Below, piece by piece: positions 3,825-40,318 of a DNA stretch of 64,000 bases. The notes under the pieces are model-generated. The model had not been told where the DNA came from. It saw nothing but the letters and a program-made list of their open reading frames with translations, and searched no databases. The stretch is from Candidatus Latescibacterota bacterium (GTDB lineage: Bacteria; Latescibacterota; UBA2968; UBA8231), in contig CBDCSU010000006.1 of NCBI GenBank assembly GCA_965221775.1, forward strand, positions 1,664,001 through 1,728,000. Direction: 5' to 3'. Both the position numbers and the translations under genes were made by a program. Position 1 is the first letter of the stretch. Each line of letters opens with the position of its first letter.

Positions 3825-4927
3825 ATGAAGCCGTGTCGAACAGCCCTCCTGATCCTGGCGATTACCGCTGCCGGCGCCGAGCCGGGATGGTGCCAGGACG
3901 TGTTCAGCGAATCCCTCGGTCCCAGGACCACCTACGGTACCACCTCCGTTGCCGTCGATCCCCGCAATCCGGAGGTGCTCTTCGCGGGCTCCGACGCGGA
4001 CGGGCTCTTCGTCAGCAGGGACGGCGGCGCGAACTGGCAGGCCGTCTGGTCGCAGGGGATCGAGTATATCGAGATCGATCCCGGCAACCCCGATGTCGTC
4101 TACGCGGCGGGGGACCGCATCATCCGGAGTCTGGACGGCGGCCGCACCTGGAGCGCGGCGAGCTGGGGCCCCCTCCCCTGGGTGAGGTCCCTGAAGGCGA
4201 ACCCCCACCTTCCCGGCGTGGTCTACGCGGGACTGGGGGACGGGATCCTGCGATCGACCGACTACGGAGAGACCTGGCATCGCATCCTGTCAGGGACGGA
4301 TCTGCCCGAAGAGGACCGCGGGGTATGGGCGATGTCCGTCGACCCTTGGGACGCCGGGACCATCTATGCCGCTGGGTCCGGCCTGCGAAGGAGCACCGAC
4401 GGCGGGGACTCCTGGGAGGCCATCGAGAACGGTATTCCATTCGACGAGGTGAGGAAGAGCGAGAAGTGGGGCGAGTTGCTGGTTACCGCGCTGGCCGCCG
4501 ACCCGGAGGAATCCGGAGTCGTGACTGCCGGGATCACGCAGTTCCCGCGCGAAACCCCGGGCGGATCTACAGAAGCACGGACGGAGGCGCCAGCTGGAGA
4601 TTGATCTCCGAGGTGGGCAGCTGGCTGACGGCGCTGTTCATCGATCCGGTTCATCCCACGACAATCCTGGTCGGCACGGGGGCGAAGAGGAGCCTGTCGG
4701 GCACATTTCTGAGCACCGACGGAGGCCTGAGCTGGGGACAGATCCAGGGAGGCGGGGCTCGTCAGATCGTCGCCTCTCCAGGCGAGGCCGGGACCTACTT
4801 CACCGCCATGAGGGCCGGCGAAACCCGCGGTGTGGTCCGCATCTCGATCGGCACCACCACGGCCATCGGAAGCACCGGCTGGGGGTCCCTCAAGGCCCTC
4901 ACGGCTCCACCATCACCATCGAGATAG
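3825..4927 (+). pseudogene. Secreted BNR/Asp-box beta-propeller (VPS10/Ycf48-like), frameshifted near 4563
   Basis: Signal peptide and SxDGGxxW repeats in ORF 3750..4604 continue in another frame (IYRSTDGGASW...STDGGLSW) to 4927; could be a sequencing error. Confidence 0.75.
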
Positions 4928-4946
4928 CCCGGGCCTCGAGGAGACC

Positions 4947-5660
4947 ATGCGCGTGCTGATCATGTCCGACATGGAAGGCGTCAGCGGCATCGTGGTGTGG
5001 AACCAGGTGACCGGCGGCGACCCGATGTTCGAGGAGGGGCGGCAGCTCTACACGGAGGAGATCAATGCCGCCGTGCGCGGAGCCAGGGCCGCCGGGGCGA
5101 CGGAGGTCGTCGTCGTCGACTGCCACGGCGCCGGCAGGGGCTGGAGCTTCAACTCCCTCGTCCCCGAGAAGATCCACCCCGATTGCGAGTGGGTCGCCCA
5201 TCATGGGTGGGGCCGCTACGACGACAGGAATCTCTGGTTCAACGACGATCTCGTGGGTGAGACCGGCGTCAACGCGGCGCTCAACGGCCACTACGGGGTC
5301 CCCGTCGCCCTGGTCACCGGCGACGCCGCCGTCTGCCGCGAGGCCAGGGCCCTCCTCGGCGAATCGCTGCCAACCGTTGCGGTGAAGAAGGGGTTGAGCC
5401 GCTTCAGCGCCCGGCAGCTGGCGCCCGTCCGCGCCCGCGAGCTGATCGAGGAGGCGGCCCGGAAGGCGCTCACCGAGCCGGTCCGCACCAAGCCCTACAT
5501 CCCCGAGCGGCCGACGACGATCCGGATCGAGCTGGCCAGCGTCGATCAACTCGCCGATTTCAAGGGCCGGGCCGGGGTGGAAACGACGGGGCCTCTCTCC
5601 GTCGAGAGCCGCGCCGCGGACTGGATGACCGCCTGGAACCAGTTCTGGCCCCTCGCCTGA
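4947..5660 (+). CDS. M55 family D-aminopeptidase (DppA-like) with an internal in-frame deletion
   Basis: SDMEG, DCHG, GETG and VTGD motifs; the G(Y/M)HA...HT segment is absent; 237 aa. Confidence 0.85.
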   Translation: MRVLIMSDMEGVSGIVVWNQVTGGDPMFEEGRQLYTEEINAAVRGARAAGATEVVVVDCHGAGRGWSFNSLVPEKIHPDCEWVAHHGWGRYDDRNLWFNDDLVGETGVNAALNGHYGVPVALVTGDAAVCREARALLGESLPTVAVKKGLSRFSARQLAPVRARELIEEAARKALTEPVRTKPYIPERPTTIRIELASVDQLADFKGRAGVETTGPLSVESRAADWMTAWNQFWPLA

Positions 5661-5681: not shown

Positions 5682-6518
5682 CTACTCGGCCCGCCACTCC
5701 CCGTCGAAACCGACGTAGCCGTCCATGTAGTGCTTGAGCCGCTCGGGCAGCCTCTCGGCCAGGGCCCGGGCCGAGGCCGGCAGGGGCCAGGGCGCGTCGA
5801 TGCGGAACGACCTGGGCCGGAAGCCGATGCCGCAGGAGTAGCGGCGCTCGCGGGTGGGCATGTTGGCGTGCCAGGTGAGGGCGGCGAAGCAGATGAGGTC
5901 CCCCGGGTCGGCCAGGACCGGCACGCAGCCGGGCACCGCCATGGCGTCGTACGGCGCGTCCGCCGAGCCCTCGGGTTGCAGGCCGCCACGGTCCGGACCG
6001 ATGGCGTACCCCTCCGGCCCTTCCCAGCCGGGGTAGTGGGACTTCTCGATGACGGCGATGCCGCTGCGGCCGGGATCGCTGCCGTTGAGGTAGAACCAGA
6101 GGCCGCTGGGGATGGGAAAGCGGTTGAGCACGTCGTTGGCGCGCTGCGGGCGGGCGATGTGCCCGCGGTGGTCCTGGTGCCAGCCGCCCATGCCCTCGCC
6201 CGGCGTGCGCAGGATGGCGGCGGACCTGTGCAGGCAGAGGTCAGCGGTGCCGTGGACGAGACGGAGGAAGCGCATGAAGGCGGGGTTGTCGACCAGCTCC
6301 CAGACCTCCTCGCTGTCCTCGGCGAAGGTCATGTGGTAGCGGTTGGAAGCCGGCCCGAGATCGCCGTCTGGGTCGAGGTGGCGGTCGATGCTGGCCTTCA
6401 GCGAGGCCACCATCTCCCGGTCGATCATTCCCCGGATCACGCAGAAGCCGTGCTCGTCCAGGCAGGCCAGGGCCGTCTCGTGGTCGTCGCGGTCGAAGTG
6501 GTAGTTGTAGTCGGGCAT
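5682..6518 (-). CDS. Phytanoyl-CoA dioxygenase (PhyH) family protein
   Basis: LDEHGFCVI, WHQD, PGDLICFAALTWH. Confidence 0.85.
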   Translation of the reverse strand: MPDYNYHFDRDDHETALACLDEHGFCVIRGMIDREMVASLKASIDRHLDPDGDLGPASNRYHMTFAEDSEEVWELVDNPAFMRFLRLVHGTADLCLHRSAAILRTPGEGMGGWHQDHRGHIARPQRANDVLNRFPIPSGLWFYLNGSDPGRSGIAVIEKSHYPGWEGPEGYAIGPDRGGLQPEGSADAPYDAMAVPGCVPVLADPGDLICFAALTWHANMPTRERRYSCGIGFRPRSFRIDAPWPLPASARALAERLPERLKHYMDGYVGFDGEWRAE

Positions 6519-6671
6519 GGCGCCGTGGAGCCTCCTCTCACGAGGTTACCGTACGAAAACCAGCGGGTCCTTCCCATCTCGCCACGGGGATCACGGAGGG
6601 GCCTCGCGCCCGCGGGCCGGCCACAGGAGCCCCCGTGGCCGGCTCAAGCCCCCCATGGAAAGGAGCTATCC

Positions 6672-9383
6672 GTGCCTCTTCTCAACGTCGACAGGGCCCG
6701 CGAGAACGTGGCCCGCCACACGTGGGCGCAGGCCATCCTCGAAGGGTGGAAGCAGCAGGTGGCCTACCTGATGGAGCAGGACCGCGGCTTCATCGAGGCG
6801 ATGATGCCCGAGCTGACCCCCTGGCCGCAGTACGGCCAGAACTGCCCGGTCTGCGTCGGCCGCCTCTCCACCATGGGGGAGACCGGCATCTACGACTGGG
6901 ATGTCCGCGATCCCGACCGCCTGGTCTGCAAGTACTGCAAGACCGAGTACCCCGGCCCCGACCACCCCGAGACCGGGAGCGTCACCGCCCCCCGGATGGG
7001 CCAGACCTTCACCTTCTACCTGACCGACGGGGAGCGGGCCCATCCCGGGGACAGGTCGGGCCGCCACGCCTTCAAGTGGGTGAACTGGCCCGTGCACACC
7101 AGCTGGACCGGGATCATCCGCTCGATGAAGATCAACTGGTGCTTCGAGAAGATGCTGCCCCTCGCCAAGCTCTACGCCCTCACCGGCGAGGTGCGCTATG
7201 CCCGCTGGTCGGCGTGGATCATGGACTGCCTGGCGCGGCGCTATCCGACCTGGCTGTTCCACTCCTACGACGGCACCGTGGCCGACTGCCCGCCGGGGGA
7301 GGCGGCCGCTTCCATGGGCGCCCATCCACCGGGCGGGCGCTTCCCCCCGGAGGCTATCATCACCGCCTTCGAGGGGCGTCACCTTCAGGAGGACCACGCC
7401 GTCCTCAACAACGGCTTCTGGGGCGCCGGACGCATGGGGTGCAGCGGCTCCGACGGCCGGATGATCCTCTCGGTCACCCTCGCCTGGGACCTGATCCGCG
7501 GCGCCCGGGAGGCCGACGGCTCCCCGGTGATCACGCCGGAGATGGACCGCCGCATCGTCGACGACCTCATCCTCGCCGGGTGGGCGGACACCGAGAACTG
7601 GAACGCCATCAACAACAAGTGCGGCCCCGGCCGCGCCCTGAGCGCCGCGGCGGGCACCCTCTTCGGGAAGCCGGAGAGCGTGCGCCGCGCCATCGAGGGC
7701 CTCGAGACCCTGCTGGAGGAGGCCTTCCACTTCGACGGCTTCTGCACCGAGTCGCCGGGCTACTCCTCCATGCACCTCAACCTGCTGCGCGACATCCCCG
7801 AGCTGCTCACCGGGTACTCCGACCCGGAGGGCTACGCGCCGGAGAGCGGGCCCCGCCTGGACGACCTCGACCCCTTCCGGCAGTTCGACCGCTACCGCCT
7901 GGCCCTGGAGAGCATGGCACGCATGCTCGACCCCAACCTGCAGGACCCCGTCATCGGCGACTCCCACCACGGCCAGGGCATCGACCCCATCCACGCCGAG
8001 GTCCTGGCCGCCCACTACGGCGGCGGCTACGCCGGCCTGCTGGAGAAGGCCCAGGGCGCTCCCCTGTCGGAGAAGGGGACGGAGTACGCCCTGTGGCACC
8101 GGGACCCCGGTCTGAAGGCCGCGGGTGAGACCGGCCTGCCGCACCGCACCGAGTGGTTCCCGGGCTGGCACGTGGCCGTCCTGCGCGGCGGCGACCCGGA
8201 GGGGCACACGGCCCTGTACCTCAACGGCTATGCCTGCGGCGGCCATCGCCACTACGACAGCCTGGGGCTCATCTACATCGCCCACGGGCGGGAGATGGCC
8301 GCCGACCGCGGCTACATCTGGGATGACCCGAGGAACGCCTGGACCCGCAGCACCCTCTCCCACAACATCGTCACCGTCGACGGCCGCAGTCAGGAAGGCC
8401 GCCCCGAGCCCGCCGCCCTGGAGCTCTTCGGGGCGGGCGCCGGCGTCGAGGTCGTGCAGGCCTCGGCCCGCCAGTACGAGCAGTGCGGGCGCTACCAGCG
8501 GACCTGCGCCCTCGTCCAGCTCCCCGGCGGAGGGACCTACGCCGTCGACTTCTTCCGCGTCGACGGGGGCCGCCTGCACCAGTACGGCTTCCACTGCAAC
8601 GGACGCCTGGCGGGTATCGATGGCGCGAACCTGGAGCCCGTGGACGAGGAGATCGAGTGGCTGGCCAACCTGCGCGCCGGCCGGCCGCGGCAGCCCTTCA
8701 CCGCCACCTGGCAGGAGCAGGAGGTGCGCATGGACCTCACCCTCCTCAACCCCGTGGACCGCCTGCTTCTGGCCGATGCCCCCGGCTGGCGCTCGGACAC
8801 CGGCGACCAGCTCCACGCCCCGCCCGTGCAGCAGATCCTGGCCGAGCGCCGCGGCGCCGCGGACCTGTCGAGCCGCTACGCCGCTGTCATCACCCCCTAC
8901 GTCGAGGAGTCACCGGTGCGCGGGGCCCGGCTGCTGCTGGACGATCCCGCCACCGGCGCCCTCGGCATCGCCGTCGAGTGGCAGGGCCGCACCGACTACA
9001 TCCTCTCGGCGCCGGAGGGCGGCGCCCACGACCTCGGTCCGGTCTCCATCGAGGGCCGCTTCGGCTTCGCTTCCGTCGACGGCGAGGGGAATCCACGGCG
9101 GGCCTTCCTGCTCTGCGGGACCACCCTGCAGTGCGGAGGCCGCGGCCTTCGGCTCGACCAGGCGCAGATCCCGCTGGAGGTCGCCTCGGCGCAGGGCCGC
9201 ACCTTCCACCTCGCCGAAGCCGTGCCCGAGCCGGAAGCCCTCCCCGGGAGCTGGCTGCTGGCGGCGGATACTGGCTACGAGGTCGAGAGCGCCACCGAGA
9301 GGTCGATCACCGTGCGGGACTACCCCGCCGTGGCGTGCGGCGAGATCCGGCTCCTCGGGGCGGCGGCCTTCGTGGAGGAGTGA
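6672..9383 (+). CDS. Heparinase II/III-like polysaccharide lyase family protein
   Basis: GTG start after AGGAG; DGFCTESPGY, GHRHYDSLG and SHNIVTVDG motifs. Confidence 0.82.
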   Translation: MPLLNVDRARENVARHTWAQAILEGWKQQVAYLMEQDRGFIEAMMPELTPWPQYGQNCPVCVGRLSTMGETGIYDWDVRDPDRLVCKYCKTEYPGPDHPETGSVTAPRMGQTFTFYLTDGERAHPGDRSGRHAFKWVNWPVHTSWTGIIRSMKINWCFEKMLPLAKLYALTGEVRYARWSAWIMDCLARRYPTWLFHSYDGTVADCPPGEAAASMGAHPPGGRFPPEAIITAFEGRHLQEDHAVLNNGFWGAGRMGCSGSDGRMILSVTLAWDLIRGAREADGSPVITPEMDRRIVDDLILAGWADTENWNAINNKCGPGRALSAAAGTLFGKPESVRRAIEGLETLLEEAFHFDGFCTESPGYSSMHLNLLRDIPELLTGYSDPEGYAPESGPRLDDLDPFRQFDRYRLALESMARMLDPNLQDPVIGDSHHGQGIDPIHAEVLAAHYGGGYAGLLEKAQGAPLSEKGTEYALWHRDPGLKAAGETGLPHRTEWFPGWHVAVLRGGDPEGHTALYLNGYACGGHRHYDSLGLIYIAHGREMAADRGYIWDDPRNAWTRSTLSHNIVTVDGRSQEGRPEPAALELFGAGAGVEVVQASARQYEQCGRYQRTCALVQLPGGGTYAVDFFRVDGGRLHQYGFHCNGRLAGIDGANLEPVDEEIEWLANLRAGRPRQPFTATWQEQEVRMDLTLLNPVDRLLLADAPGWRSDTGDQLHAPPVQQILAERRGAADLSSRYAAVITPYVEESPVRGARLLLDDPATGALGIAVEWQGRTDYILSAPEGGAHDLGPVSIEGRFGFASVDGEGNPRRAFLLCGTTLQCGGRGLRLDQAQIPLEVASAQGRTFHLAEAVPEPEALPGSWLLAADTGYEVESATERSITVRDYPAVACGEIRLLGAAAFVEE

Positions 9384-29911: not shown

Positions 29912-30493
29912 TCAGGACTCTGCGGCGCCGTCGACCTCGAAGCCGCGGAGGGCGGCGCCGCAGGGATGCCCGTGCAGGGCCGGGGCCATGTGCACCTTGC
30001 GCAGGTAGTCGAGCGTCCCCGACAGCTCCTCGAAGCGGTCGGCCATGCCGCGGAAGAGCCGGGCCTGGCGGGCGCCCGCCAGCTGCAGGTGCTCGCCCAC
30101 GAGGCGGTAGCTCTCGCCCCCTTCCTTCAGGTAGTAGGAGAGGTGTCCGCCGGCCTCGACGTGGGGACGGAAGACGCCGGACAGGAAGAGGGCGTAGTCG
30201 CCGCAGTGGCGCCGCAGGTCGACCTCCCGGTCGAAGGACCAGGCCCGGTCCGAACCCCACTCCTCCATCAGCTCCAGCAGCAGGTCGGTGAGGGTGTGCA
30301 GCGGCCGTCCGCGGCTGTCGCGGACCCGGTACAGCTGGTCGGTGCGGGAAAAGCGGGCGAGCAGGTCGGTGACGTAGTCGGCCAGCTCCCCCGCGCCGAG
30401 TCCGAGGCTGGCGAAGCAGGGGCGCACCATGGCCCCGAAGAACCGGCGCAGCGCCGGCGGCGGGGGACGGGATGTGGATGCGCGGGAAACCAT
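29912..30493 (-). CDS. Conserved hypothetical helical protein
   Basis: ADYVTDLLARF...RRHCGDYALFLSGVF...YYLKEGGESY pattern; perfect TATAAT upstream. Confidence 0.7.
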   Translation of the reverse strand: MVSRASTSRPPPPALRRFFGAMVRPCFASLGLGAGELADYVTDLLARFSRTDQLYRVRDSRGRPLHTLTDLLLELMEEWGSDRAWSFDREVDLRRHCGDYALFLSGVFRPHVEAGGHLSYYLKEGGESYRLVGEHLQLAGARQARLFRGMADRFEELSGTLDYLRKVHMAPALHGHPCGAALRGFEVDGAAES

Positions 30494-30507
30494 GGCGGCC
30501 GCCGCAG

Positions 30508-30559
30508 ATTATAGGCCCTCGGATTGCGGTTGACACTGTCGAAGTGGAGAGGATACCCT
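30508..30559. promoter_or_regulatory. Overlapping divergent sigma70-type promoters
   Basis: Minus strand TATAAT at 30513-30508; plus strand TTGACA (30530-35)-N18-TACCCT (30554-59). Confidence 0.55.
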
Positions 30560-30567
30560 CACAGACC

Positions 30568-32664
30568 ATGGTCCGCTGGCCGCGACATCTGACCAACTCC
30601 CTCGACGACGCCTCCCGCCGGGAGGTGGCGCGCCTGGTGCAGGCCGAACGCGGCGCGAAGCCCGCTCTCGAGCGCGCCGGCGCCGTGCTGGAGTTCCGCC
30701 GCGGGGGCCAGCTTCAGTGCGGGTATCTCGCCCGGGATCCGCAGAACCGCAGGGGCTACGACGTCGTCGGCGTCGACGGCCGGCGGCTCCACCTCCGCCG
30801 CGACAAGGTGGTGGACGTATCCCCCGAGTACGTGTCGATGCACACGCCCGAGACGGCGCTGTCCGACCTCCGCCGCATCGACCGGAGGCGCGAGGAGGCC
30901 CGCGGCGCCGTCGACCTCACCGCCCTCTGGCAGGTCGCTCTCGAAGCGGGCCCGGAGGGCGGCGAGTGGCGCCTCGACGATCTGGTCGAGCTCCACGACC
31001 CCCGCGATCCGACCGCCAGCCGCCGGGCCGGCTTGCTCCGGGCCCTGTGGCGCGGCCACCGGTTCGAGCGCCACGGCGCCCGCTGGCGCCCCCGCCCCCC
31101 GGCGGCGGTGGAGAGGATCGAGGCGTCCTCCGCCCGCGAGGAGGTGGAGGAGGGCCGCCAGGCCGAGCTGGCCTCGTGGGTCCGAAGGGTCGCCGACGGG
31201 CATCCAGCCAACCCCCGTCCCGCCGGGGCGGACTCGGCGGTGAACCTGCTCGAGGCCACCGCCCTGGGCGAGGCGAGCGCGGAGGCCGCCCGTCTCATGA
31301 AGGCCGCCCACCTGCACGGGAGCGCCGCCGCCTTCGACGTCCTCGTCCGTCTGGGTCACTGGTCCGCCGACGAGAACCTGGAGCTGCACCGCCTCGGCCT
31401 TCCCGTGGACTTCTCCGAGGCGGCGGTGAAGGCGGCGCACGGCCTCGATCCCTCGCCCGTCCTCGCGGGGTGGGCAGGCCGCCGCCGCTGGGGCGCCGGC
31501 CTCTGCGTCACCCGTTGCGGCCAGCGGGCCTACCGTCTCCGCCGGAGCCTGCTCGGCCACACCGTCGTCGACATCCACGTGGCCGTGCCGGCCCTGTGGG
31601 TGGAGGACGGCGGCGCCATCGATCAGGAAGCCGCCGCCCGGGGCCTCAGCGTGCGCCTGCTGGAGCGGGAGATCCCGATGCTGCCGCCGGAGCTGACCGA
31701 CGCCTGCCGGCTGACGGCGGACGAGGCCCGACCCGTCCTGATCCTGAGCGTGCGCCTGGACCGCGAGCTGGCGCCGCGGAAGGTGCGGCTGTCCCTGGGC
31801 CGCGCCCGGCCCCGTGCGGCCCTCGCGGCCGGGGAAGGCAGCGCCCCGGTGCGCCGCCTGGCGGCGCTGGCCGAGGGGCGGCGGCAGAGACGGCGGCGAG
31901 CGGGGGCTTGGCAGCAACTGCATCCCGCCCACCGGATCGCGGTCCTCCAGGGGCGGGCGGCGCCGGCGGCGGAGGGGGTGGAGGACCGCATCGACTCGGA
32001 GCTGCGCCTGCTGGCGGCCGAAGCGATCGCCCGCCTCTGCCGCGACGCGGCGCCCGCGATCCACGCGGCGCGCGAGGCCCCGCCCGCCGAGTCCGGGATC
32101 CCCGGCGCCGCCGACTCCACGTCGGCCGAGGTCCTCCGCACCCATCTGCTCGAGGGCGGTGCCCCCCGCGAGAGGTTCGGGACGCCGCCGGCCCCCCACG
32201 CGGGTCTCGGACTGCCGGGCTGCGCCCCGGGCGCCAGCCCCCTGTCGAGCTACGTCGACCTGGCCATGCAGCGGCAGTTGCTGTGGATCGCGGGCCGGCG
32301 CTCCGACCCCCTCACGGCGGAGGACCTCGAGCGCATCCTGCTGGAGACGCGCGAGGCCCGGGAGGCGGCGGAGCGCGTGCGCCGCGGCAGCCGCCGCTAC
32401 TGGACGCTCAAGTGGCTCGAGGGCTTCGGGGACGAGGCGCGGCTGGAGTGCGTGGTCGCCGAACCGCGCGGCCCCGGGCACCTGGTACTGCTGCCCGAGG
32501 GTCCGGTGGCGTGCCATGTCCCGGCCCCCCGGGGGCAGCGGCTGCAGGCGGCGCCGGGCCAGCGCCTGCGGGTGCGGGTGGAGCAGGCCTCCGCCCGGCG
32601 CGACCTGTTGCGGCTGGCCGACCCCGAGCCCGCCCGGAGAGCGGACCCGCTCCCACCGGCCTGA
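30568..32664 (+). CDS. RNB-domain (RNase II-like) protein, predicted catalytically inactive
   Basis: HVAVP...IDQEAAARGLSV.L.EREIPMLP, PHAGLGL...SPLSSYVDLAMQRQL, C-terminal S1-like region; acidic catalytic motif missing. Confidence 0.8.
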   Translation: MVRWPRHLTNSLDDASRREVARLVQAERGAKPALERAGAVLEFRRGGQLQCGYLARDPQNRRGYDVVGVDGRRLHLRRDKVVDVSPEYVSMHTPETALSDLRRIDRRREEARGAVDLTALWQVALEAGPEGGEWRLDDLVELHDPRDPTASRRAGLLRALWRGHRFERHGARWRPRPPAAVERIEASSAREEVEEGRQAELASWVRRVADGHPANPRPAGADSAVNLLEATALGEASAEAARLMKAAHLHGSAAAFDVLVRLGHWSADENLELHRLGLPVDFSEAAVKAAHGLDPSPVLAGWAGRRRWGAGLCVTRCGQRAYRLRRSLLGHTVVDIHVAVPALWVEDGGAIDQEAAARGLSVRLLEREIPMLPPELTDACRLTADEARPVLILSVRLDRELAPRKVRLSLGRARPRAALAAGEGSAPVRRLAALAEGRRQRRRRAGAWQQLHPAHRIAVLQGRAAPAAEGVEDRIDSELRLLAAEAIARLCRDAAPAIHAAREAPPAESGIPGAADSTSAEVLRTHLLEGGAPRERFGTPPAPHAGLGLPGCAPGASPLSSYVDLAMQRQLLWIAGRRSDPLTAEDLERILLETREAREAAERVRRGSRRYWTLKWLEGFGDEARLECVVAEPRGPGHLVLLPEGPVACHVPAPRGQRLQAAPGQRLRVRVEQASARRDLLRLADPEPARRADPLPPA

Positions 32665-32666
32665 GA

Positions 32667-34019
32667 ATGGTCCGAGCGGGCCTGTGCGCGGCCCTCGCGG
32701 GGGCCTGCTGGCTGCTGGCCGGGGCCGCCGCCGCGGGTGAGCCGGAGACCGAGGCAAGCCGATTCTGGCCCGCCTGGCGCGGCCCCCTGGGCACCGGCGC
32801 CTCTCCCCACGCTGAGCCCCCGCTCCAGTGGAGCCAGACCCGCAACCTGCGCTGGAAGGCGTCCCTGCCCGGCGGCGGCCACTCTACGCCGGTGGTCTGG
32901 GGCGACCGGGTCTTCATCACCGCCGCAGTCCCGTACGGCGAGCCCCTGCCGCCGACGTACAGCGGGCTGCCGGGCGGCCACGACGAACGGCCGGTCACCC
33001 ATCGCCACCGGTTCGTCGTCCTTGCCCTGAGCCGCACCACGGGGCGGGTCCTCTGGCAGCGGGTCGTGCGCCACGACCTGCCCCGCGCCGGGGGCCACTA
33101 CACCGCCAGCCTGGCCTCCGCCTCGGCGGTGACCGACGGCGAGCACCTGGTCGCCTCCTTCGGCTCCCACGGGATCTACGGCCTCGACCTCGAGGGGGAG
33201 CTGCTGTGGGAGTTGGACCTCGGCCCCATGGAGCCGCTTCACGGCCACGGCGAAGGCAGCTCGCCGGCGCTCGCCGGCGGGACGCTGATCGTCAACTGGG
33301 ACCACGAGGGCGAGTCCTTCCTCGCCGCCTTCGACAAGAGGACGGGCGGCCTGCGCTGGAAGGCTCCGCGCGAGCCGGCCTCGTCCTGGACCACCCCCAT
33401 CGTGACCGACGCCGGCGGCCGCATCCAGGTCGTGGTCAGCGGCTCCGGGGGAGTGCGCGGCTACGACCTGGCCGACGGCCGCAGGATCTGGGAGTGCCCC
33501 GGCCTCTCGGTGGAGAACGTGGTCTCCACGCCGGTGGCCGGCTTCGGCCTCGTCTTCGCGGGCAGCAGCTACGACCGGCAGGCGGTGCTGGCGATTCCGC
33601 TGCAAGCCGCCGCGGACGAGACCGGCGGGCCCCGCCGGGCCGCCTGGAGCCGCACCCGGGGGGCGCCGTACGTCCCCTCCTTCCTGCTCTACGGGGACGC
33701 CCTCTACTTTGTCCGCCACTTCCAGAACATCCTCACCCGCGTCGACGCCCGAACGGGGCGGGACCGGCCGGGGCCGATGCGCCTGAAGGGCCTCGACCGG
33801 GTCTTCGCCTCTCCCGTCGCCGCTGCCGGCCGCGTGTACGTCACCAGCCGCAACGGCGTCACCGTGGTGGTCAGCCACGCCGATTCGCCCGCCCTCCTGG
33901 CCGTCAACCATCTCGACGACAGCTTCAGCGCCTCGGCGGCACTGGCCGGCGGCGAGCTCTACCTGCGAGGACGACACCACCTCTACTGCATCGCGGAGCA
34001 TCCGCCCCCGGCCCGGTGA
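32667..34019 (+). CDS. Secreted PQQ-like beta-propeller protein (BamB-like repeats)
   Basis: Signal peptide, WPAWRGP, GHSTPVVWGDRVF, SWTTP, FSASAALAGGELYLRG. Confidence 0.88.
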   Translation: MVRAGLCAALAGACWLLAGAAAAGEPETEASRFWPAWRGPLGTGASPHAEPPLQWSQTRNLRWKASLPGGGHSTPVVWGDRVFITAAVPYGEPLPPTYSGLPGGHDERPVTHRHRFVVLALSRTTGRVLWQRVVRHDLPRAGGHYTASLASASAVTDGEHLVASFGSHGIYGLDLEGELLWELDLGPMEPLHGHGEGSSPALAGGTLIVNWDHEGESFLAAFDKRTGGLRWKAPREPASSWTTPIVTDAGGRIQVVVSGSGGVRGYDLADGRRIWECPGLSVENVVSTPVAGFGLVFAGSSYDRQAVLAIPLQAAADETGGPRRAAWSRTRGAPYVPSFLLYGDALYFVRHFQNILTRVDARTGRDRPGPMRLKGLDRVFASPVAAAGRVYVTSRNGVTVVVSHADSPALLAVNHLDDSFSASAALAGGELYLRGRHHLYCIAEHPPPAR

Positions 34020-34044
34020 ACCCGGCAGGCGCCGGCGGTGTCAA
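34017..34044 (+). promoter_or_regulatory. Putative ECF-type (autoregulatory) promoter
   Basis: TGAACC-N16-TGTCAA, ending 15 nt before the sigma ATG; GGAGG at 34051-55. Confidence 0.55.
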
Positions 34045-34059
34045 CCGGGTGGAGGCCGG

Positions 34060-34665
34060 ATGGGGAAGAGCGACGAGGAGCTGGTCCGCGGGGTGATCGA
34101 GGGGCGGCAGGAAGACTTCGCCGAGCTCTTCGAGCGCTACCGCGCCGATGTGCAGCGGCACCTGCGGCGGATCCATCGCCATGACGAGGACGCCGCCGAC
34201 GTCGGGCAGGAGGTGTTCCTGCGCCTGTGGCACCGCGCCGGACAGTGGAAGGGCGACGGCCCCCTGCTCGCCTGGCTGCTGCGCATCGCCACCAACCTCG
34301 CCCTCAACCACATCCGCTCGGTCCGGCGCCGCCGCGAGCAGCCGCTGCAGCCGCCCCCCGCCATGGACGGAGAGGAGGAGGACGACACCCGGGTTCCGGA
34401 GTGGATGATCGACGCCTCCACCCTTCCGCCCGACGAGGTCCTGGCCGTGGCCGAGCGCCGGCGGCTGCTGCGCGGCCTGGTGACGCGTCTGCCCGAGGAC
34501 GGGCGCAGGGTCATCCGGCTGATCTACGACGGCCACCTGAACACGCGCCAGGCCGCTACCGAGCTGGGCATACCCGAGGGCACGGTGAAGTCCCGGATCC
34601 ACCACGCCCGCAAACAGATCGCTCGATCCTGGCGCGACCTGGGGATCGACTGGGAGGAGGACTAG
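34060..34665 (+). CDS. ECF (sigma-70 family group 4) RNA polymerase sigma factor
   Basis: FAELFERY, DAADVGQEVFLRLW, WLLRIATNLALNHIR (region 2); ELGIPEGTVKSRIHHAR (region 4.2). Confidence 0.95.
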   Translation: MGKSDEELVRGVIEGRQEDFAELFERYRADVQRHLRRIHRHDEDAADVGQEVFLRLWHRAGQWKGDGPLLAWLLRIATNLALNHIRSVRRRREQPLQPPPAMDGEEEDDTRVPEWMIDASTLPPDEVLAVAERRRLLRGLVTRLPEDGRRVIRLIYDGHLNTRQAATELGIPEGTVKSRIHHARKQIARSWRDLGIDWEED

Positions 34666-34667
34666 GC

Positions 34668-37600
34668 ATGGCGACCGCACCGTCCAACCCGTGGCACAAG
34701 GCGTCCTTCGACGAATTCCTGCACCGCCGCCTTCCCGAGTTGCTGGCCGCACGGCTGGGGGTGACCACCTGCCGCGCCGCAGGGGCCGGCGGTCACGCCT
34801 GCCGGATCGTCCTCGGCGGGCGTTCCGCCGAGGGGGACTTCGAGGTCGAGTACGACGGGCTGCCCGCACCGGACGAGGAGGGCGTCTTCCGGTTGCCGGG
34901 TTCCCCGGACCCGGACGGCGGGCCCCGCCTGCCGCCCCCGAGGACGTACCACGGGGGGGAGCGCGAGCCCTCGGGCGAAGTCGAGCTGGTCGTGCTGCCC
35001 GTGGCCGACCGGGACGACCTGGCCGAGGCCCGAATCGACTGTCTCGGCGACCGGCTCTCGACCTTCATCGAGTCCCGCCTCGGGGAGGTCCCCGGCCACA
35101 CCCCCCTCGACGGGTCCCTCCTGCGGACCCTGGCGCCTCTGAAGGACTGGTTCCACTCCTTCCTGGCCTCCTGCGGCGAGCGGCTCGACGACACCAACTG
35201 GCTGTCCCGGTCCGCGCACCTGCGCCGGATCCTGGTCCCGGACCGCCAGGAGGTATTCACCCCCGGCCACTTCGGCCGCACCTGCCCCTTCGAGACCCCG
35301 GAGGGACCGAACATCGGCCGCGTCCTGACGATCTCCCGGGGCGCGGAGATCCGCGGCCGCCGGCTGGTGATCGTCGACGCGAAGCCCGCGGAGGGACTGG
35401 GCATGTCCAGCGCATGCATCCCCTTCCTCGAGCACGACGACGGCAACCGCGTGCTCATGGGCGCCAACATGATGCGCCAGTGGCTGGCGCCCGCCGAGAG
35501 AGAGCCGGCCTTCGTGCGGACCGGCCTCGAGCCGCGGGCGCCGGACTTCTGGTGCGGCCGGAACCTGCTCACGGCTCTGCTCTCGTGGGACGGGGACGCC
35601 TTCGAGGACGCCGTGCTGCTCAGCCGGTCCGGCGCCCGCAAGCTCGCCTGCCCGGAGCCCCTCGAGCCCGGCGACAAGCTCAGCAACCGCCACGGGATCA
35701 AGGGCGTCGTGTCCCGGGTGGCGCCCGACGAGGAGATGCCGCGGCTGCCCGACGGCACCCCCGTGGAGCTGGTCTTCAGCTTCTCCGGCATTCCGTCCCG
35801 CTGGGTCATGGGGCTGGTCCGGGAGGCCGCCCTCGGACACGCGGCTCACCTGCGGGGGGAGCCCGCCGTCGTGCCCCCCTTCAAGGCGCCTTCCGACGAG
35901 CAGTTGCGGAACCTGCTTCAGGGCAGCGGCCTGCGCGCCGACGGCATGACCACGCTGACCCTCGACGGCACTCCCCTGCGGCGGCCGGCCACGGCCGGAT
36001 CGGTCTACTGGGGCTGCACCGTGCATCGCGCTCGCCCGAAACTGAGGGCCGCCGTCCACCCCGACGACCGGGGCCAGCGCCTGGGGGAGATGGAGGTGCG
36101 GGCCCTGGCCGAGGCCGGGGCGCCCGCGGTGATCCGGGAGCTGACCAACACCTGCTCCAGCCAACGCGGCGACGCCGGTTCCCTGGCCGAGAGGGCCGCC
36201 GCCGGACCGGTCGAGCCGGCGAGCACCCCCTCTCCCGCCTTCTCGGCCCTGGCGGCGGGTCTGGCGCAGGCCGGAATCCGCGCCGAGGCCGGCCCCCGGG
36301 GGGTCGCCTTCCGGTTGGAACCACCCCGGGGGCCGACGCTGTCCCTGGCCGCCGGCGTGCCCCACCCCTGGTTGCCGGGGAAGACCCTGTCCGAGGTCTG
36401 CGCAGCCGAGGGGGCCGCCGGATATCCCGAGGTCCTCGCCGCCAACGGCAGGCTCGCCCGCCTGCCGAAGGACGGGGCTCCCGAGCCCCTGGCAGCCGCG
36501 GCTCTCGACGATCTGGCCGCCGCTGTCTCGGACCTGTACGACGGACTGGCCGCCGCGCCGCGGCTGGGGCGGGATGGGAATGTCCTCTTCAGCGGCCGTG
36601 CGGTGATCGTCCCCGGGGGCGATCTGCCGGCCGACCGGCTCGGCCTCCCGGCGGAGATGGCCTGGAGCCTCTTCGGGCCGCTGGTGGCCCGCGCGCTGGG
36701 GGATCCCGAAGCGGTGGGGCAGCGCTCCACCGAGGCCGAGGCCGCCCTCGCCGCCGCCATGGAGGCCCACTGGGTCATCCTCGGCCACGCTCCATCGGTC
36801 AGTCCCACGGCGATGCTGGCCTTCCGGCCCCTGCCGATCCCGGGCCACGCCATCCGTCTCTGCCCCCTGGCCTGCGGCCTGTTGGACGCCGATTTCGACG
36901 GCGACCAGGCGGCCGTCTTCCTGCCTCTCACGGAGGCGGCTCAGCGCGAGACCCGCGAGCGGCTGTCCATCGCCGGCCACCTGGCCCGTGACCCCGGCCT
37001 CGTGGAGGACCTCTTCCCGCGCATGGACGCCCTCTTCGGGCTGGCCTGCCTCAGCCGCTCGGCAGCGGGCCGGAAGGCGATTACGCAAGCCGCCGGCCGG
37101 GAGCCGAACCTCGAGGGCGGCCTCCTCACCCGCGAGGCGGCGGCGATGCTGCTGCGGGGTGTCCTGACCGACGAGGGGGAGCAGGCGGCCCTGGGCGTGG
37201 CCGCGGAACTGATGCGGTTGGGGTTCGAGACGGCCCGCGCGGAGGGAGGCTCCGTGGGGCCCTTCATCGGCAGCACCCTCGAACTGCCCGTCCCCCCGGG
37301 GGAGGACGACGCGCCGCAGTGGCAGGCCTGCACGGAGGAAGCCCGGGCGATCGTCGCCGGCTTCCGCGACTACGACGACCACGACCTGGGGGCCGCCGCC
37401 CTGCTGTGCCACAGCGGCGCCCGGGCCACGGTCCATCAGCTCACCACCCTGGTGGGGCCGGGCGGACTCGTTCGCGACGTCGAGGGCCGGGTCCTCGGAG
37501 TCGCCCGCTCCTGGCGGGAGGGACTGACCGCGCGGGAGGTGCTGGCCCGGGTCGTCGGCGCCCGCCGCGGCCTGTTCCGCGTCCTGACGGAGTTCGGATC

Positions 37601-37769
37601 CCTCGGCCGGGAGCGGTCCGGGTCCGGGCCGGAGGGGTTCGGCGTCCTGGCCCGGGCCCGCCGGGTCGAGCGCCCGGGCCTCGTCTTCGCGAGGGCTGCC
37701 CTCAGGGGCGAGGTCGATCCCCTGGAAGACGAGCAATCGCGGCTGCTGGTCGGACTGTCCAGGCCGTGA
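34668..37769 (+). CDS. Miniaturised single-chain RpoB-RpoC (beta-beta') RNA-polymerase-like protein, 1033 aa
   Basis: Collinear beta motifs (GRTCPFETPEGPNIG, IPFLEHDDGNRVLMGANM, FED, GDKLSNRHGIKG, PSR, GQRLGEMEV) followed by beta' motifs (FSGRAVI, GLPAEMA, ADFDGDQ, SGAR, REGL, GARRGL). Confidence 0.92.
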   Translation: MATAPSNPWHKASFDEFLHRRLPELLAARLGVTTCRAAGAGGHACRIVLGGRSAEGDFEVEYDGLPAPDEEGVFRLPGSPDPDGGPRLPPPRTYHGGEREPSGEVELVVLPVADRDDLAEARIDCLGDRLSTFIESRLGEVPGHTPLDGSLLRTLAPLKDWFHSFLASCGERLDDTNWLSRSAHLRRILVPDRQEVFTPGHFGRTCPFETPEGPNIGRVLTISRGAEIRGRRLVIVDAKPAEGLGMSSACIPFLEHDDGNRVLMGANMMRQWLAPAEREPAFVRTGLEPRAPDFWCGRNLLTALLSWDGDAFEDAVLLSRSGARKLACPEPLEPGDKLSNRHGIKGVVSRVAPDEEMPRLPDGTPVELVFSFSGIPSRWVMGLVREAALGHAAHLRGEPAVVPPFKAPSDEQLRNLLQGSGLRADGMTTLTLDGTPLRRPATAGSVYWGCTVHRARPKLRAAVHPDDRGQRLGEMEVRALAEAGAPAVIRELTNTCSSQRGDAGSLAERAAAGPVEPASTPSPAFSALAAGLAQAGIRAEAGPRGVAFRLEPPRGPTLSLAAGVPHPWLPGKTLSEVCAAEGAAGYPEVLAANGRLARLPKDGAPEPLAAAALDDLAAAVSDLYDGLAAAPRLGRDGNVLFSGRAVIVPGGDLPADRLGLPAEMAWSLFGPLVARALGDPEAVGQRSTEAEAALAAAMEAHWVILGHAPSVSPTAMLAFRPLPIPGHAIRLCPLACGLLDADFDGDQAAVFLPLTEAAQRETRERLSIAGHLARDPGLVEDLFPRMDALFGLACLSRSAAGRKAITQAAGREPNLEGGLLTREAAAMLLRGVLTDEGEQAALGVAAELMRLGFETARAEGGSVGPFIGSTLELPVPPGEDDAPQWQACTEEARAIVAGFRDYDDHDLGAAALLCHSGARATVHQLTTLVGPGGLVRDVEGRVLGVARSWREGLTAREVLARVVGARRGLFRVLTEFGSLGRERSGSGPEGFGVLARARRVERPGLVFARAALRGEVDPLEDEQSRLLVGLSRP

Positions 37770-37854
37770 CGGCCAGGCCGTGCGGCCTCACCCGCCGACC
37801 GCCTGGGCGTGCCCGCGGGAGTGGTGTCGAGTGTCGGCCCGGCGGCCGGCAGCG

Positions 37855-38784
37855 CTAGCCGTCCGGCCCGCGCAACTCGATGGCGTCCAGCAGTTGCTGA
37901 GGGTTGGCCAGGTCCACGGGCAGGAGCACGTCCGTCTTGCCGTCGGCCAGACCGCGCAACGTCTTGAGATAGCGCTCCGCCAGCTGCAGGTGCACCGACT
38001 GGGCGCCGCCGGCGACGCTGATCGAGGCGGCGATCTTCTCGATCGACTCGGCCGTCGCATGGGCGATGGCCCGGACCTCCTCGGCCTGACCCTGGGCCTC
38101 GTTGATGGTGCGCTGCATCTCGCCCTCCGAGCGGTTGATCAGCTCCAGGCGCCGGCCCTCCGAGGTGTTGATGCGGCTCTGCTTGTCGCCCTCGGACTGG
38201 GCCACGACGGCGCGGCGGTCGCGCTCGGCGGTGACCTGCTTCTCCATGGCGTCCTTCACCGTCGGCGGCGGCGACAGGTTCTTGATCTCGTAGCGGTGGA
38301 CGCGGATCCCCCAGGTCTCCCCCGACCTCTCCAGCACCTCCACCACTTTGGCCGAGATCAGGTCGCGCTCCTCGAAGGTCCGGTCGAGCTCGAGGGTGCC
38401 GATGACCGAACGGGTCGTGGTCTGCGCCAGTTGCATGGCGGCGAAGGAGTAGTTGGTCACCCCGTAACTGGCCTTCACCGGATCGGTGACCGAGATGTAG
38501 AGGACGCCGTCCACCTCGACCTGGACCTCGTCCCGGGTGAAGCACTCCTGGGGCGGCACGTCGACGGTCTCCTCCTTGAGATCGCGGATGAAGGCCACCT
38601 TCTCGATGAAGGGCACGAGGGCGTGGAAACCGGGGTTCAGAGTTCTGGAGTACTTGCCGAGCCGCTCGACGACGTACGCCGACTGGGTCGGCACCAGCCG
38701 GATCGAGCGCAGGAACTTGACGATCAGGACCAGGAACAGGACGGCCCAGACGATGAGGTTGAAGATCTCGAAGACGGTCGACAT
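37855..38784 (-). CDS. SPFH/stomatin (paraslipin-like) protein
   Basis: VVERLGKY, VEVDGVLY, AQTTTRSVIG, WGIRVHRYEI, MEKQVTAER. Confidence 0.93.
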   Translation of the reverse strand: MSTVFEIFNLIVWAVLFLVLIVKFLRSIRLVPTQSAYVVERLGKYSRTLNPGFHALVPFIEKVAFIRDLKEETVDVPPQECFTRDEVQVEVDGVLYISVTDPVKASYGVTNYSFAAMQLAQTTTRSVIGTLELDRTFEERDLISAKVVEVLERSGETWGIRVHRYEIKNLSPPPTVKDAMEKQVTAERDRRAVVAQSEGDKQSRINTSEGRRLELINRSEGEMQRTINEAQGQAEEVRAIAHATAESIEKIAASISVAGGAQSVHLQLAERYLKTLRGLADGKTDVLLPVDLANPQQLLDAIELRGPDG

Positions 38785-38785
38785 G

Positions 38786-39718
38786 TCAGGCCTCCTTCTT
38801 CTGGTTCGGCACGCCGGCGGCGACCTCGCCCAGCCCCTCGAAGAAGCCCTTGATCCGGGCCAGCTCCAGGGGCACGACGGAGACGCTGGACTTGGCGGCG
38901 ATCTCCCGGATCGTCTCGATGTACTCCTCCACCAGCTGCATCTTCAGCGCCGCCGGTCCGCCTTCCTTCTGCACCGCGGCGGCGATCCGCTCGGTGCCCT
39001 CGGCGGTGGCCTCGGCGATGATGGAGATCGCCTCGGCCTGTCCCCTGGCGACGTTGATCCGGCGTTGCTTCTCGCCCTCGGAGATGTTGATCTCCTCCTG
39101 GCGCTCGCCCTCGGAGAGGTTGATGGTGCTCTCCTTCTCCGCCGCGGCGCGGGTGATCTCGGCGCGCTTCTCGCGCTCCGCCTCCATCTGCTTCTCGAGG
39201 GTGTTCACCACGTTCGCCGAGGGCGTGATGTTGCGCAGCTCGTAGCGCAGCACCTTGATCCCCCAGGGATTCGAGGCCTTGTCGATCTCCTGGACGATCG
39301 TCTCGTTCAGGGACTCGCGCTCGTAGAACGACTGGCCCAGGGTCAGCTTGCCGATCTCGGCCCGCATCGTCGTCTGCGCCAGGTTGATGCTGGCGCGGCG
39401 GTAGTCCTCGATGCCGTAGCTGGCGCGCTCGGGATCGAGGACCTGCAGGTAGACCAGGCCGTCCACCTCGACCTGGATGTTGTCGCGCGTGATGCAGGCC
39501 TGGCTGGGGACGTCGATCACCTGCTCGCGCGTCTCGTGGCGATAGGCGATGCGGTCGAAAAAGGGGATGAGGAAGTGGAACCCCGGCTGCAGGACCGCCC
39601 GGAACTTGCCCAGCCGCTCGACGATGACCGCCGCGCGCATGGGCACGACGACAAATGTCTTGAGCACCAGGAACAGGGCGATCAGCACGAGGATCGTGAA
39701 GTACGTCAGAAGGGGCAT
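38786..39718 (-). CDS. SPFH/stomatin (paraslipin-like) protein
   Basis: IVERLGKF, ITRDNIQVEVDG, AQTTMRAEIG, WGIKVLRYE. Confidence 0.93.
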   Translation of the reverse strand: MPLLTYFTILVLIALFLVLKTFVVVPMRAAVIVERLGKFRAVLQPGFHFLIPFFDRIAYRHETREQVIDVPSQACITRDNIQVEVDGLVYLQVLDPERASYGIEDYRRASINLAQTTMRAEIGKLTLGQSFYERESLNETIVQEIDKASNPWGIKVLRYELRNITPSANVVNTLEKQMEAEREKRAEITRAAAEKESTINLSEGERQEEINISEGEKQRRINVARGQAEAISIIAEATAEGTERIAAAVQKEGGPAALKMQLVEEYIETIREIAAKSSVSVVPLELARIKGFFEGLGEVAAGVPNQKKEA

Positions 39719-39721
39719 CGC

Positions 39722-40186
39722 TCAATTCTCCTGTAAGGGACCGCCGCCGTCGGGCCCGGCGGCCTCGACGACCCACACGAGGTTCTCGCGATAGGCGAGG
39801 ATCGCCTTCTCTCCCGCCTCGATGGTGCCGTCGTAGCAGATCGCCTGCCAGGTGGCGTCCCGGTAGTGGATCCGCCCCGCCTGGTCCGGCGCGATCCTCT
39901 CCACCACGTCCACGACCGTGCCGTAGGCGTCCTCCTCCTCGTCGGTGGACTGTCGCTCGGACCCGCCTCCGACGAAGCGCAGGAAGAGGCCGCGCAGGCT
40001 CAGCAGCAGGACGAGGGAGAGGATGAACCAGGTGGTGAGGGCCGGGATCAGGCCGTCGATCCAGCCCAGCCAGATGAGGGCGGCCACGATCAGGGCGCTC
40101 GACCCGAGAAAGCCGAGCACCATTCCGGGCAGGAACAACTCCAGCAGGATCATGACGGCGCCGGCGACGATCCAGGCTGTGAGCAT
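39722..40186 (-). CDS. NfeD family membrane protein
   Basis: WIVAGAVMILLELFLPG transmembrane region plus C-terminal OB-like GRIHYRDATWQA; adjacent to SPFH genes. Confidence 0.88.
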   Translation of the reverse strand: MLTAWIVAGAVMILLELFLPGMVLGFLGSSALIVAALIWLGWIDGLIPALTTWFILSLVLLLSLRGLFLRFVGGGSERQSTDEEEDAYGTVVDVVERIAPDQAGRIHYRDATWQAICYDGTIEAGEKAILAYRENLVWVVEAAGPDGGGPLQEN

Positions 40187-40318
40187 AGGGCCTCCGGGGA
40201 TTGGCAGGCGGAGACGGCGTCGGGGAAGGATAGGGCGGATGAGAGGGGGGAGCGAGATTGCGGGGAAGGCCGGGCGCCCGGAGCGCACCGGGGCGGCCTC
40301 CCCCGGCGGTGCAAGGGA

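Follow-up and report, generated by a model that had tools for sequence, protein, structure and literature searches.

Why would a bacterium that encodes a canonical RNA polymerase carry a second, much shorter relative of it, in which the two residues that contact the ribose of the incoming nucleotide are changed? This question is raised by a 64,000-nucleotide stretch of a Candidatus Latescibacterota bacterium genome (GCA_965221775.1, contig CBDCSU010000006.1, positions 1,664,001 to 1,728,000 of the forward strand), which we refer to as the window and in whose own numbering coordinates are given. At 34668..37769 on the forward (+) strand lies a gene for a protein of 1033 amino acids (aa), here called mini-RNAP for mini-RNA polymerase, directly behind a gene for a sigma factor of the extracytoplasmic function (ECF) type. 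From the sequences of this locus and its relatives we favour, with moderate confidence, the reading that mini-RNAP is an active, sigma-directed minimal RNA polymerase, second and accessory in its genome, with a sigma factor and a promoter of its own. The changed ribose contacts, to which an earlier note on this DNA had drawn attention, are a clade-level detail of this larger object, the sigma-linked mini-polymerase.

The gene probably starts at the ATG at 34668, which has a GGAGG upstream and lies 2 nt past the stop codon of the sigma gene; the product length of 1033 aa then equals that of P0003, a 98% identical homolog. Profile searches indicate that the gene is neither rpoC nor rpoB, and that it encodes a one-chain fusion of trimmed β and β′ sequences. 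Pfam matched Rpb2_3, Rpb2_6 and, weakly, Rpb2_7 in the first half of the chain and Rpb1_2 in the second half. The NCBIfam models for rpoB and rpoC were matched with E-values of 5.2e-48 and 6.2e-29, with bit scores that stayed far below the equivalog cutoffs for rpoB (TIGR02013, 163.5 versus 801.15) and rpoC (TIGR02386, 100.4 versus 963.5). The same was found for the full-length β/β′ fusions (NF011417, 154.8 versus 4632; NF007172, 145.1 versus 5372); these proteins of ∼2850 aa also join β and β′, in the same order, but keep all domains. The sequence-profile matches listed from the PDB were β or β′ chains only, and the best 50 Foldseek matches listed from the PDB were bacterial or plastid β/β′ chains. 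The AlphaFold2 model of the chain is compact and confident (mean predicted local distance difference test score, pLDDT, 90.3; predicted template modelling score, pTM, 0.88). The marks of a two-barrel (double-psi β-barrel) polymerase are all present, namely the DxDGD triad, the basic residues K337, K345 and R378, and the Pfam pair Rpb1_2 and Rpb2_6. Since canonical rpoB and rpoC genes sit elsewhere in the genome, on contig C4 (open reading frames of 1312 and 1389 aa), mini-RNAP is a paralog.

To describe what the chain has kept, we used the numbering of Escherichia coli K-12, taken from the rpoB and rpoC products of NC_000913, which were compared by blastp. A family-specific domain of ∼130 residues (residues 1-132; 34668..35063, +) occupies the place of the β lobes, β residues 1 to ∼440 being missing. 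No Pfam family was matched by residues 1-132, and phmmer found 105 matches (E≤0.001) among 1.84 billion representatives, all at or near the protein N-terminus except for an internal match in P0195 (4641 aa); the matching proteins of ∼1000 aa are full-length members of the family. The β-derived part (residues 133-544; 35064..36299, +) comprises the fork region, the β barrel and the β C-terminus, and lacks the flap and other segments. A family hidden Markov model (HMM) aligned query residues 133-227, 236-291, 289-323, 326-398 and 395-544 with E. coli β residues 474-580, 653-708, 789-823, 1054-1126 and 1177-1342, respectively. The flap (β 824-1053) is thus replaced by the step from query residue 323 to 326, which spans E. 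coli β 823 to 1054.

On the β′ side, the family profile retains the E. coli segments 267-515, 589-640 and 718-799, and the β′ N-terminus with its zinc-binding cysteines is missing. The first retained segment begins with the clamp helices (residues 584-627; 36417..36548, +; HMM positions 558-600 corresponding to β′ 267-311), which the model folds as helices 586-601 and 606-627. In canonical enzymes these helices are the docking site for sigma region 2. In the E. coli clamp helices we take R275, E295 and A302 to be sigma-70 contacts; these are unconserved in the family consensus, and we draw nothing from this. The rudder region, ∼25 residues that follow the clamp helices in E. coli, is deleted. 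The bridge helix (residues 955-985; 37530..37622, +) is a single helix in the model and lies at the end of the query segment 906-984 that matches β′ 718-799. Only 48 residues follow it, and nothing aligns with β′ 800-1306: the trigger loop, its insertion and the jaw are missing. The best match of this C-terminal tail is β′ 1307-1354, with E-values of 0.056 and 0.069 in a one-sequence search that are weak and prove nothing by themselves. Taken with this C-terminal β′ motif, mini-RNAP retains both barrels, the fork with the segment of the rifampicin region, the clamp helices and the bridge helix. It thereby shares with the bacterial core enzyme the barrels, the catalytic Asp triad, the Lys, Arg and His residues contributed by β, and both the clamp and bridge helices, but it is one chain of 1033 aa instead of ∼2700 aa and is devoid of lobes, flap, β′ zinc domain, rudder, trigger loop and jaw.

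The gene upstream (34060..34665, +) encodes a 201-aa sigma factor and ends with a TAG stop codon at 34663-34665, 2 nt before the polymerase start. Pfam matched Sigma70_r2 (1.8e-14) and Sigma70_r4_2 (2.2e-12) in it and no region 3, and it scored 89.9 bits on the NCBIfam sigma70-ECF model TIGR02937 (cutoff 42.9), without reaching any equivalog cutoff. The linker between regions 2 and 4, usually variable in ECF sigma factors, contains in this sigma factor and its orthologs an acidic stretch and a conserved VPGWMID motif (window positions 34360-34420, residues ∼101-120).

The pairing of the two genes is a property of the family. A sigma ortholog lies upstream of the polymerase gene at 43 of the 46 loci with upstream DNA. 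Among the genome loci this holds for all 34, the window included, always on the same strand and with phmmer E-values from ∼1e-49 to 1e-135; the sigma gene is directly adjacent in 28 and separated by another gene in 6. In 5 of these, all genomes of the phylum, the intervening gene encodes an ABC exporter of ∼600 aa with ABC_membrane and ABC_tran domains (L117 2315-4093, L118 7133-8962, L119 2384-4246, L120 7348-9213 and L122 3435-5261), assigned by Pfam at 2 of the 5 loci and near-identical by eye at the other 3. The remaining locus has a 388-aa open reading frame (ORF) without assignment in this position. At the metagenome loci the sigma gene is adjacent in 9 of 12 with upstream DNA; the exceptions are L125, which has no sigma gene, L136, in which the gene is truncated, and L127, in which none is within reach. 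Across 168 genomes of the phylum, the polymerase was found in 65, the sigma ortholog (E≤1e-25) in 63 and both in 62, that is, in 62 of the 66 genomes that have either. The lone sigma-only genome, G157, has its sigma gene at a contig end; two of the three polymerase-only genomes, G144 and G147, are single-contig assemblies.

A few loci depart from the simple pair. The complete genome G071 carries two sigma-polymerase pairs on its contig C1, near 1.43 Mb and 3.37 Mb. In L133, two additional sigma-like ORFs (389-2068 and 5914-6963) flank the pair, one of them with an N-terminal extension of ∼245 residues. In L088 (G166, 4593-5387), the sigma ortholog is split into two ORFs by a single in-frame TGA, reflecting either a misassembly or a disrupted gene. 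The polymerase reading frame of G147 is shorter than usual, at 966 aa.

Upstream of the sigma gene we identified a promoter-like motif of the ECF type, TGAACC-N13-CGGTGTC (34017..34042, +). Its first three bases double as the stop codon of the preceding gene, and its end lies 17 nt before the sigma start. GAAC at -35 and GTC at -10 are typical of ECF promoters. A strict pattern matched 31 of 53 family loci, each a single time and ∼45 nt before the start of the sigma gene (in L127, of the polymerase gene), and matched nowhere else on either strand of 336 kb of locus DNA. By inspection it was visible in 20 of 20 upstream regions from four phyla, as a variant in L008. The 5.36-Mb genome contains no second exact copy of the sequence at 34017-34042, and neither sigma-70-type promoters nor intrinsic terminators were found in 33500-38200. 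In L127 (826-4007) the motif stands 44 nt before the polymerase gene itself, after a gene for a class II aminoacyl-tRNA synthetase, and there is no sigma gene in the 825 nt upstream. Sigma and polymerase genes thus form a two-gene operon behind a promoter that is conserved across phyla. One sponge metatranscriptome library contains a 1070-nt contig from a ∼91% identical relative that spans 33912-34987 and includes that relative's promoter and sigma gene as well as the first 320 nt of its polymerase gene, along with shorter contigs over 35310-36428. Contigs of this kind reveal neither where transcripts begin nor their strand or level, and DNA may be present in the library; they give a weak hint that the module is expressed in a relative.

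These elements suggest a simple mechanism. The sigma factor would recognise the TGAACC-N13-CGGTGTC promoter and dock via its region 2 on the retained clamp helices; the single chain would then make RNA on DNA without α, ω or a trigger loop, and the module would act back on the promoter from which it is expressed. With β and β′ fused, the assembly platform formed by α and ω may be dispensable. Because the polymerase is linked to a sigma gene and a promoter, promoter-directed transcription is to be expected of it rather than a primase-like or nucleotidyltransferase role. That a polymerase can be efficient without a trigger loop is illustrated by YonO of the Bacillus prophage SPbeta, which an excerpt of PMC5467207 describes as a single polypeptide of ∼100 kDa, homologous to the multisubunit enzymes yet without trigger-loop homology, which forms phosphodiester bonds as well as they do. 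As far as that excerpt goes, YonO resembles mini-RNAP in being a single chain, in lacking the trigger loop and in being encoded alongside a normal polymerase (PMC5467207). The two differ in sequence, however: hhalign of the family profile against YonO gave a probability of 0.33% and an E-value of 0.18 over 23 columns around DxDGD. YonO is moreover prophage-encoded, whereas the mini-RNAP family is chromosomal and recognisably β/β′-like by Pfam. Of the 35 phage records that tblastn matched, not one comes from a Bacillus phage, as judged from the first word of the organism name, in a collection that holds the SPbeta record. We know of no sigma partner of YonO.

To assess the proposed contact, the sigma factor was modelled together with polymerase residues 1-799. 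The complex reached a score of 0.53 (median of three runs), against 0.00 for the best control, with at least 62% contact agreement between runs and a partner pLDDT of at least 66. A score of 0.53 is attained by 58 of 80 solved complexes and by 2 of 110 mismatched pairs, and the range from this mark up to 0.60 holds 7 of the 80 solved complexes and both mismatched passes. The prediction therefore lends weak support to binding; because sigma-core complexes are abundant among solved structures, the pass may also reflect mere likeness to these.

Several observations weigh against the reading of mini-RNAP as a sigma-directed enzyme. The canonical docking site for sigma region 4 is lost with the flap, and the complex prediction supports the pair only weakly. 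L125 and L127 have a polymerase gene without an adjacent sigma gene, and in G144 and G147 the only sigma matches lie far from the polymerase gene and are paralog-level, with the 80-98 bits of ordinary ECF paralogs versus at least 167 bits for the orthologs. No target promoters were found beyond that of the operon itself: in a weight-matrix scan of the genome the operon site ranked first with a score of 22.3, and because the runner-up follows closely at 21.4 a regulon cannot be defined. The sponge library is the sole RNA evidence. Finally, the ratio of nonsynonymous to synonymous substitution rates (dN/dS), at 0.33-0.38 in comparisons with three congeneric relatives, is not low for an essential enzyme, a third-position GC content near 0.9 limiting the estimate of dS.

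The missing flap, the weak complex support and the four polymerases without an adjacent cognate sigma gene also count in favour of an alternative, according to which the sigma factor is only a regulator that lets the host core enzyme drive the operon, with mini-RNAP working sigma-free, for instance as an RNA-copying enzyme, in the synthesis of short RNAs or in elongating primers or nicks. Autoregulation from a promoter immediately in front of the gene is common among ECF sigma factors, and the position of the motif directly upstream of the sigma gene fits this pattern. We nevertheless regard this alternative as doubtful. The clamp helices were kept though most of the surrounding β′ N-terminus was deleted; the two genes occur together in nearly all genomes that have either, and they are almost contiguous in the window. 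A co-transcribed anti-sigma factor is typical, though not universal, for ECF sigma factors, and Pfam detected no anti-sigma domain among the operon neighbours: the gene that follows the sigma gene is the polymerase gene. The conservation of VPGWMID in the linker of this sigma group also argues against a role as regulator alone.

If mini-RNAP is indeed a sigma-directed RNA polymerase, what do the altered ribose contacts mean? The LGHAPS motif (36780..36797, +; codons ctc ggc cac gct cca tcg) places G706 at the position of β′ N424 and H707, encoded by CAC at 36786-36788, at that of β′ R425, the main sensor of the 2′-OH group. In the DADFDGD motif (36885..36905, +; gac gcc gat ttc gac ggc gac), D740 takes the position of N458 and D742, D744 and D746 form the metal-binding triad, corresponding to E. 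coli β′ D460, D462 and D464 by blastp. Both motifs are in frame in the ORF 34227..37769, and query residues 697-756 align without gaps with β′ 415-474, so that the replacement of LNRAPT by LGHAPS and of NADFDGD by DADFDGD, as read in the earlier note, is borne out by codons and alignment alike. The note also held that the catalytic residues are retained, and all of these did align: in addition to the triad, E313/D314, K337, K345, R378 and H453 of the β-side active site (35604..36026, +) correspond to E. coli β E813/D814, K1065, K1073, R1106 and H1237. The combination of NRAP and NADFDGD was present in 72 of the 72 canonical rpoC loci that reach the motif (of 76 loci, that of the same genome included), and R425 and N458, invariant in these multisubunit enzymes, are H707 and D740 in the window; the deviation is therefore real. 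Nor is it a sequencing error, since His occupies the R425 column in 9 of the 11 clade sequences that cover it, which comprise the window product and 10 relatives from other assemblies.

Within the family at large, Arg at this position is the rule. Among 121 aligned members the R425 column contains R in 109, H in 10, T in 1 and a gap in 1, and among 38 full-length cluster representatives R in 32, K in 3, S in 2 and G in 1. The N458 column is far more mixed, with N in 67, D in 31, Q in 16, E, S and V in 2 each and a gap in 1 of the 121, and with N in 20, D in 11, E in 3, Q in 2 and G in 2 of the 38. At the N424 position N (63) is followed by H (31) and Y (13), and the other residues are scattered; G is restricted to the query and the twin that is 98% identical to it. 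In contrast to canonical β′, the family thus tolerates change at the N458 and N424 positions, and loss of the Arg is rare but recurrent. DADFDGD is therefore a common state of the family and not a special event of this locus, whereas His is nearly private to the clade of the query (at least 79% identity), with one further sequence outside it. The earlier note had named conservation of R and N in homologs as a sign of private drift: this holds for the Arg, and it does not hold for the Asn. In the clade tree, the Arg-bearing members P0009 and P0010 nest among His-bearing ones, from which we conclude that R and H have toggled; the switch is a single transition, CGC to CAC or the reverse, between sequences that are 79-89% identical. 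The two columns may also be coupled, as Asp or Glu stands at the N458 position in 5 of 6 representatives without Arg, versus 9 of 32 with Arg, a hint from counts taken without a tree.

That R425 and N458 contact the sugar and contribute to the choice of ribonucleotides (rNTPs) over deoxyribonucleotides (dNTPs), as stated beforehand, agrees with an excerpt of PMC7862312, in which R425 is the main determinant of the choice against 2′-dNTPs. According to this excerpt, the R425K substitution reduces selectivity by a factor of 17 at binding and of 25 at incorporation, and R425L likewise loses selectivity, so that it is the absence of Arg that matters; the effect of N458S is small (∼4-fold), and a third sugar contact, Q929, sits on the trigger loop (PMC7862312), which mini-RNAP lacks. 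By analogy, and assuming that the mechanism holds without a trigger loop, the enzyme with His and Asp probably discriminates against dNTPs less than its Arg-bearing relatives. The part of the earlier proposal that concerned relaxed sugar specificity is thus a fair inference if the enzyme is active; the primase-like or nucleotidyltransferase activity that it offered as an example finds no support.

A more radical view is that the His/Asp site has changed the class of substrate, to dNTPs or 3′-modified nucleotides, making the protein a primase-like enzyme, a DNA polymerase or a nucleotidyltransferase. It could appeal to the increased dNMP incorporation upon loss of R425 that the excerpt of PMC7862312 reports, and to the fact that the substrate-contacting Gln and Met of the trigger loop have gone with the loop. 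R707H is, moreover, one of only three changes (with L32V and Y35C) that set the query apart from the consensus at 175 columns that are at least 95% conserved among 109 non-clade members, and the excess of Asp or Glu beside a lost Arg points the same way. A parallel is the archaeal DNA polymerase PolD (DP2), with a two-barrel core, in which the His of GLAPHT, placed on the loop where RNA polymerases have the Arg of RxPxLH, is a steric gate against rNTPs (excerpt of PMC7708050). The window His is on this same loop, and its Gly-x-Ala-Pro context (G-H-A-P-S) resembles the quoted GLAPHT. However, it stands in place of the Arg, two residues ahead of the PolD His, the L-G-H-A-P-S-V sequence lacks the invariant PHT, and the remainder of the protein is of the RNA polymerase type. 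The 31 of 121 members with Asp at the N458 position mostly retain the Arg, and toggling between R and H within the clade fits interchangeable states better than a change of substrate. Since the His clade also has the same sigma gene and promoter motif as the rest of the family, we regard a changed substrate class as improbable, and R707H is best read as a tolerated or tuned variant of the active site and not as a switch in the kind of enzyme. Bolder still is the idea that sigma factor, promoter and 115-kDa chain make up a complete portable system, able to work without α, ω, flap and trigger loop, in which the His would permit promoter-started synthesis of DNA or of mixed ribo/deoxy polymers, a natural intermediate between RNA polymerase and two-barrel DNA polymerase; we think this very improbable.

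It is equally hard to credit that the protein is no working polymerase at all, being a decaying paralog or a non-catalytic binder such as a sigma sink or a nucleic-acid-binding scaffold, since against the joint loss of trigger loop, flap and lobes, the moderately high dN/dS and the patchy distribution (in the 65 phylum genomes, in 19 of the 52 that are of high quality and in 4 of 9 further genomes from the genus) stand full-length, stop-free reading frames in those 65 genomes, the compact and confident model, the 172 of 175 strongly conserved columns at which the query agrees with the consensus, and the near-universal conservation, down to ∼36% identity, of the Asp triad (118, 119 and 120 of 121 aligned members) and of E313, D314, K337, K345, R378 and H453 (34, 36, 34, 36, 38 and 35 of 38 cluster representatives). 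The protein is under purifying selection and not decaying.

The sigma-directed polymerase that we propose belongs to a widespread family. The protein search returned 370 matches with E≤0.001; nearly all of the top 120 have a length of 1000-1090 aa and full-length identities of 43-98%, and those that carry a name are called 'hypothetical protein' and come from Gemmatimonadota, Chloroflexota, Hydrogenedentes and Anaerolineae. Members were also found in species genomes of Poribacteria, Caldilineaceae and Latescibacterota and in one Spirochaetales metagenome-assembled genome. Scans of genome contigs and metagenomes used patterns shared with canonical rpoB-rpoC and hence returned mostly canonical loci, only 5 and 13, respectively, of the 80 loci kept per scan belonging to the family. 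One single-contig genome of the same genus is without the polymerase gene. The L096 copy (G162, contig C165), from the same genus, is only 47% identical to that of the window, and the N-terminus of its sigma factor is identical to that of L008, a Latescibacterota contig; the 5.7-kb L096 contig is possibly mis-binned.

Neither plasmids (72,556 records) nor phages (50,697 records) contained a match that covers at least 80% of the query; the plasmid matches listed, 8 of 68 records, fall on rpoB/rpoC or on unannotated stretches. A single match of 57 residues at a contig end was all that IMG/VR contained. PHROGs held only full-size β-like and β′-like families and a generic sigma family, and no PADLOC defence-system model matched either the sigma factor or the polymerase. 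The segment 33900-37800 is well represented, with a high share of its words, in DNA runs from several studies, mostly labelled as sponge or marine metagenome. Poribacteria, Caldilineaceae, Latescibacterota and Gemmatimonadota have been reported from sponge and marine samples, and it is possible that the module is exchanged within this community.

The genes around the operon in the window are not conserved at other loci. A gene at 30472-32664 (+) encodes an RNB-domain protein resembling RNase II with a double helix-turn-helix. The 396-aa ORF that follows (32828-34019, +), whose stop codon overlaps the promoter motif, matches no Pfam family; an assignment as PQQ-like propeller, made by eye for 32828-34016, was therefore withdrawn. 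Downstream, on the opposite (-) strand, 37855-40288 holds two SPFH/Band 7 genes and an NfeD gene.

Single-chain two-barrel RNA polymerases are already known from YonO and from Orf6 of yeast plasmids, as are full-length β-β′ fusions. An excerpt of PMC2919709 describes Orf6 of the Kluyveromyces lactis linear plasmid pGKl2 as an Rpb2::Rpb1 fusion of 982 aa, which by this description resembles mini-RNAP in the order of fusion (second-largest, then largest subunit), in a length of ∼1000 aa and in the deletion of about half of the sequence, and differs from it in its eukaryotic plasmid origin and in having no sigma factor. In the literature we found no description of a widespread, β/β′-derived family of ∼1030 aa that lacks flap and trigger loop and has its own ECF sigma factor and promoter, which does not exclude a prior one, and the main text of the ECF classification paper, the part that was searched, does not mention the family. 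Further families of fused polymerases may exist: the ESM Atlas contains other unnamed clusters with Rpb2_6 and Rpb1_2 in one chain, of ∼1220, 1330, 1450, 1610, 1675 and 1790 aa, which we take as leads.

If our reading is true, mini-RNAP would be the smallest sigma-dependent RNA polymerase of the cellular type known, and so compact a pair of sigma factor and core, its promoter being defined, would be attractive for practical use as an orthogonal expression system. It would also show which parts of the ∼400-kDa bacterial core are dispensable for promoter-directed transcription. Within the family, the residues at the R425 position (R, H, K or S) and at the N458 position (N, D, Q or E) amount to a natural series of variants in an enzyme without a trigger loop. 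The choice between ribose and deoxyribose by two-barrel polymerases, a question that also stands behind the proposal that PolD descended from an RNA polymerase core, could thereby be tested on natural proteins.

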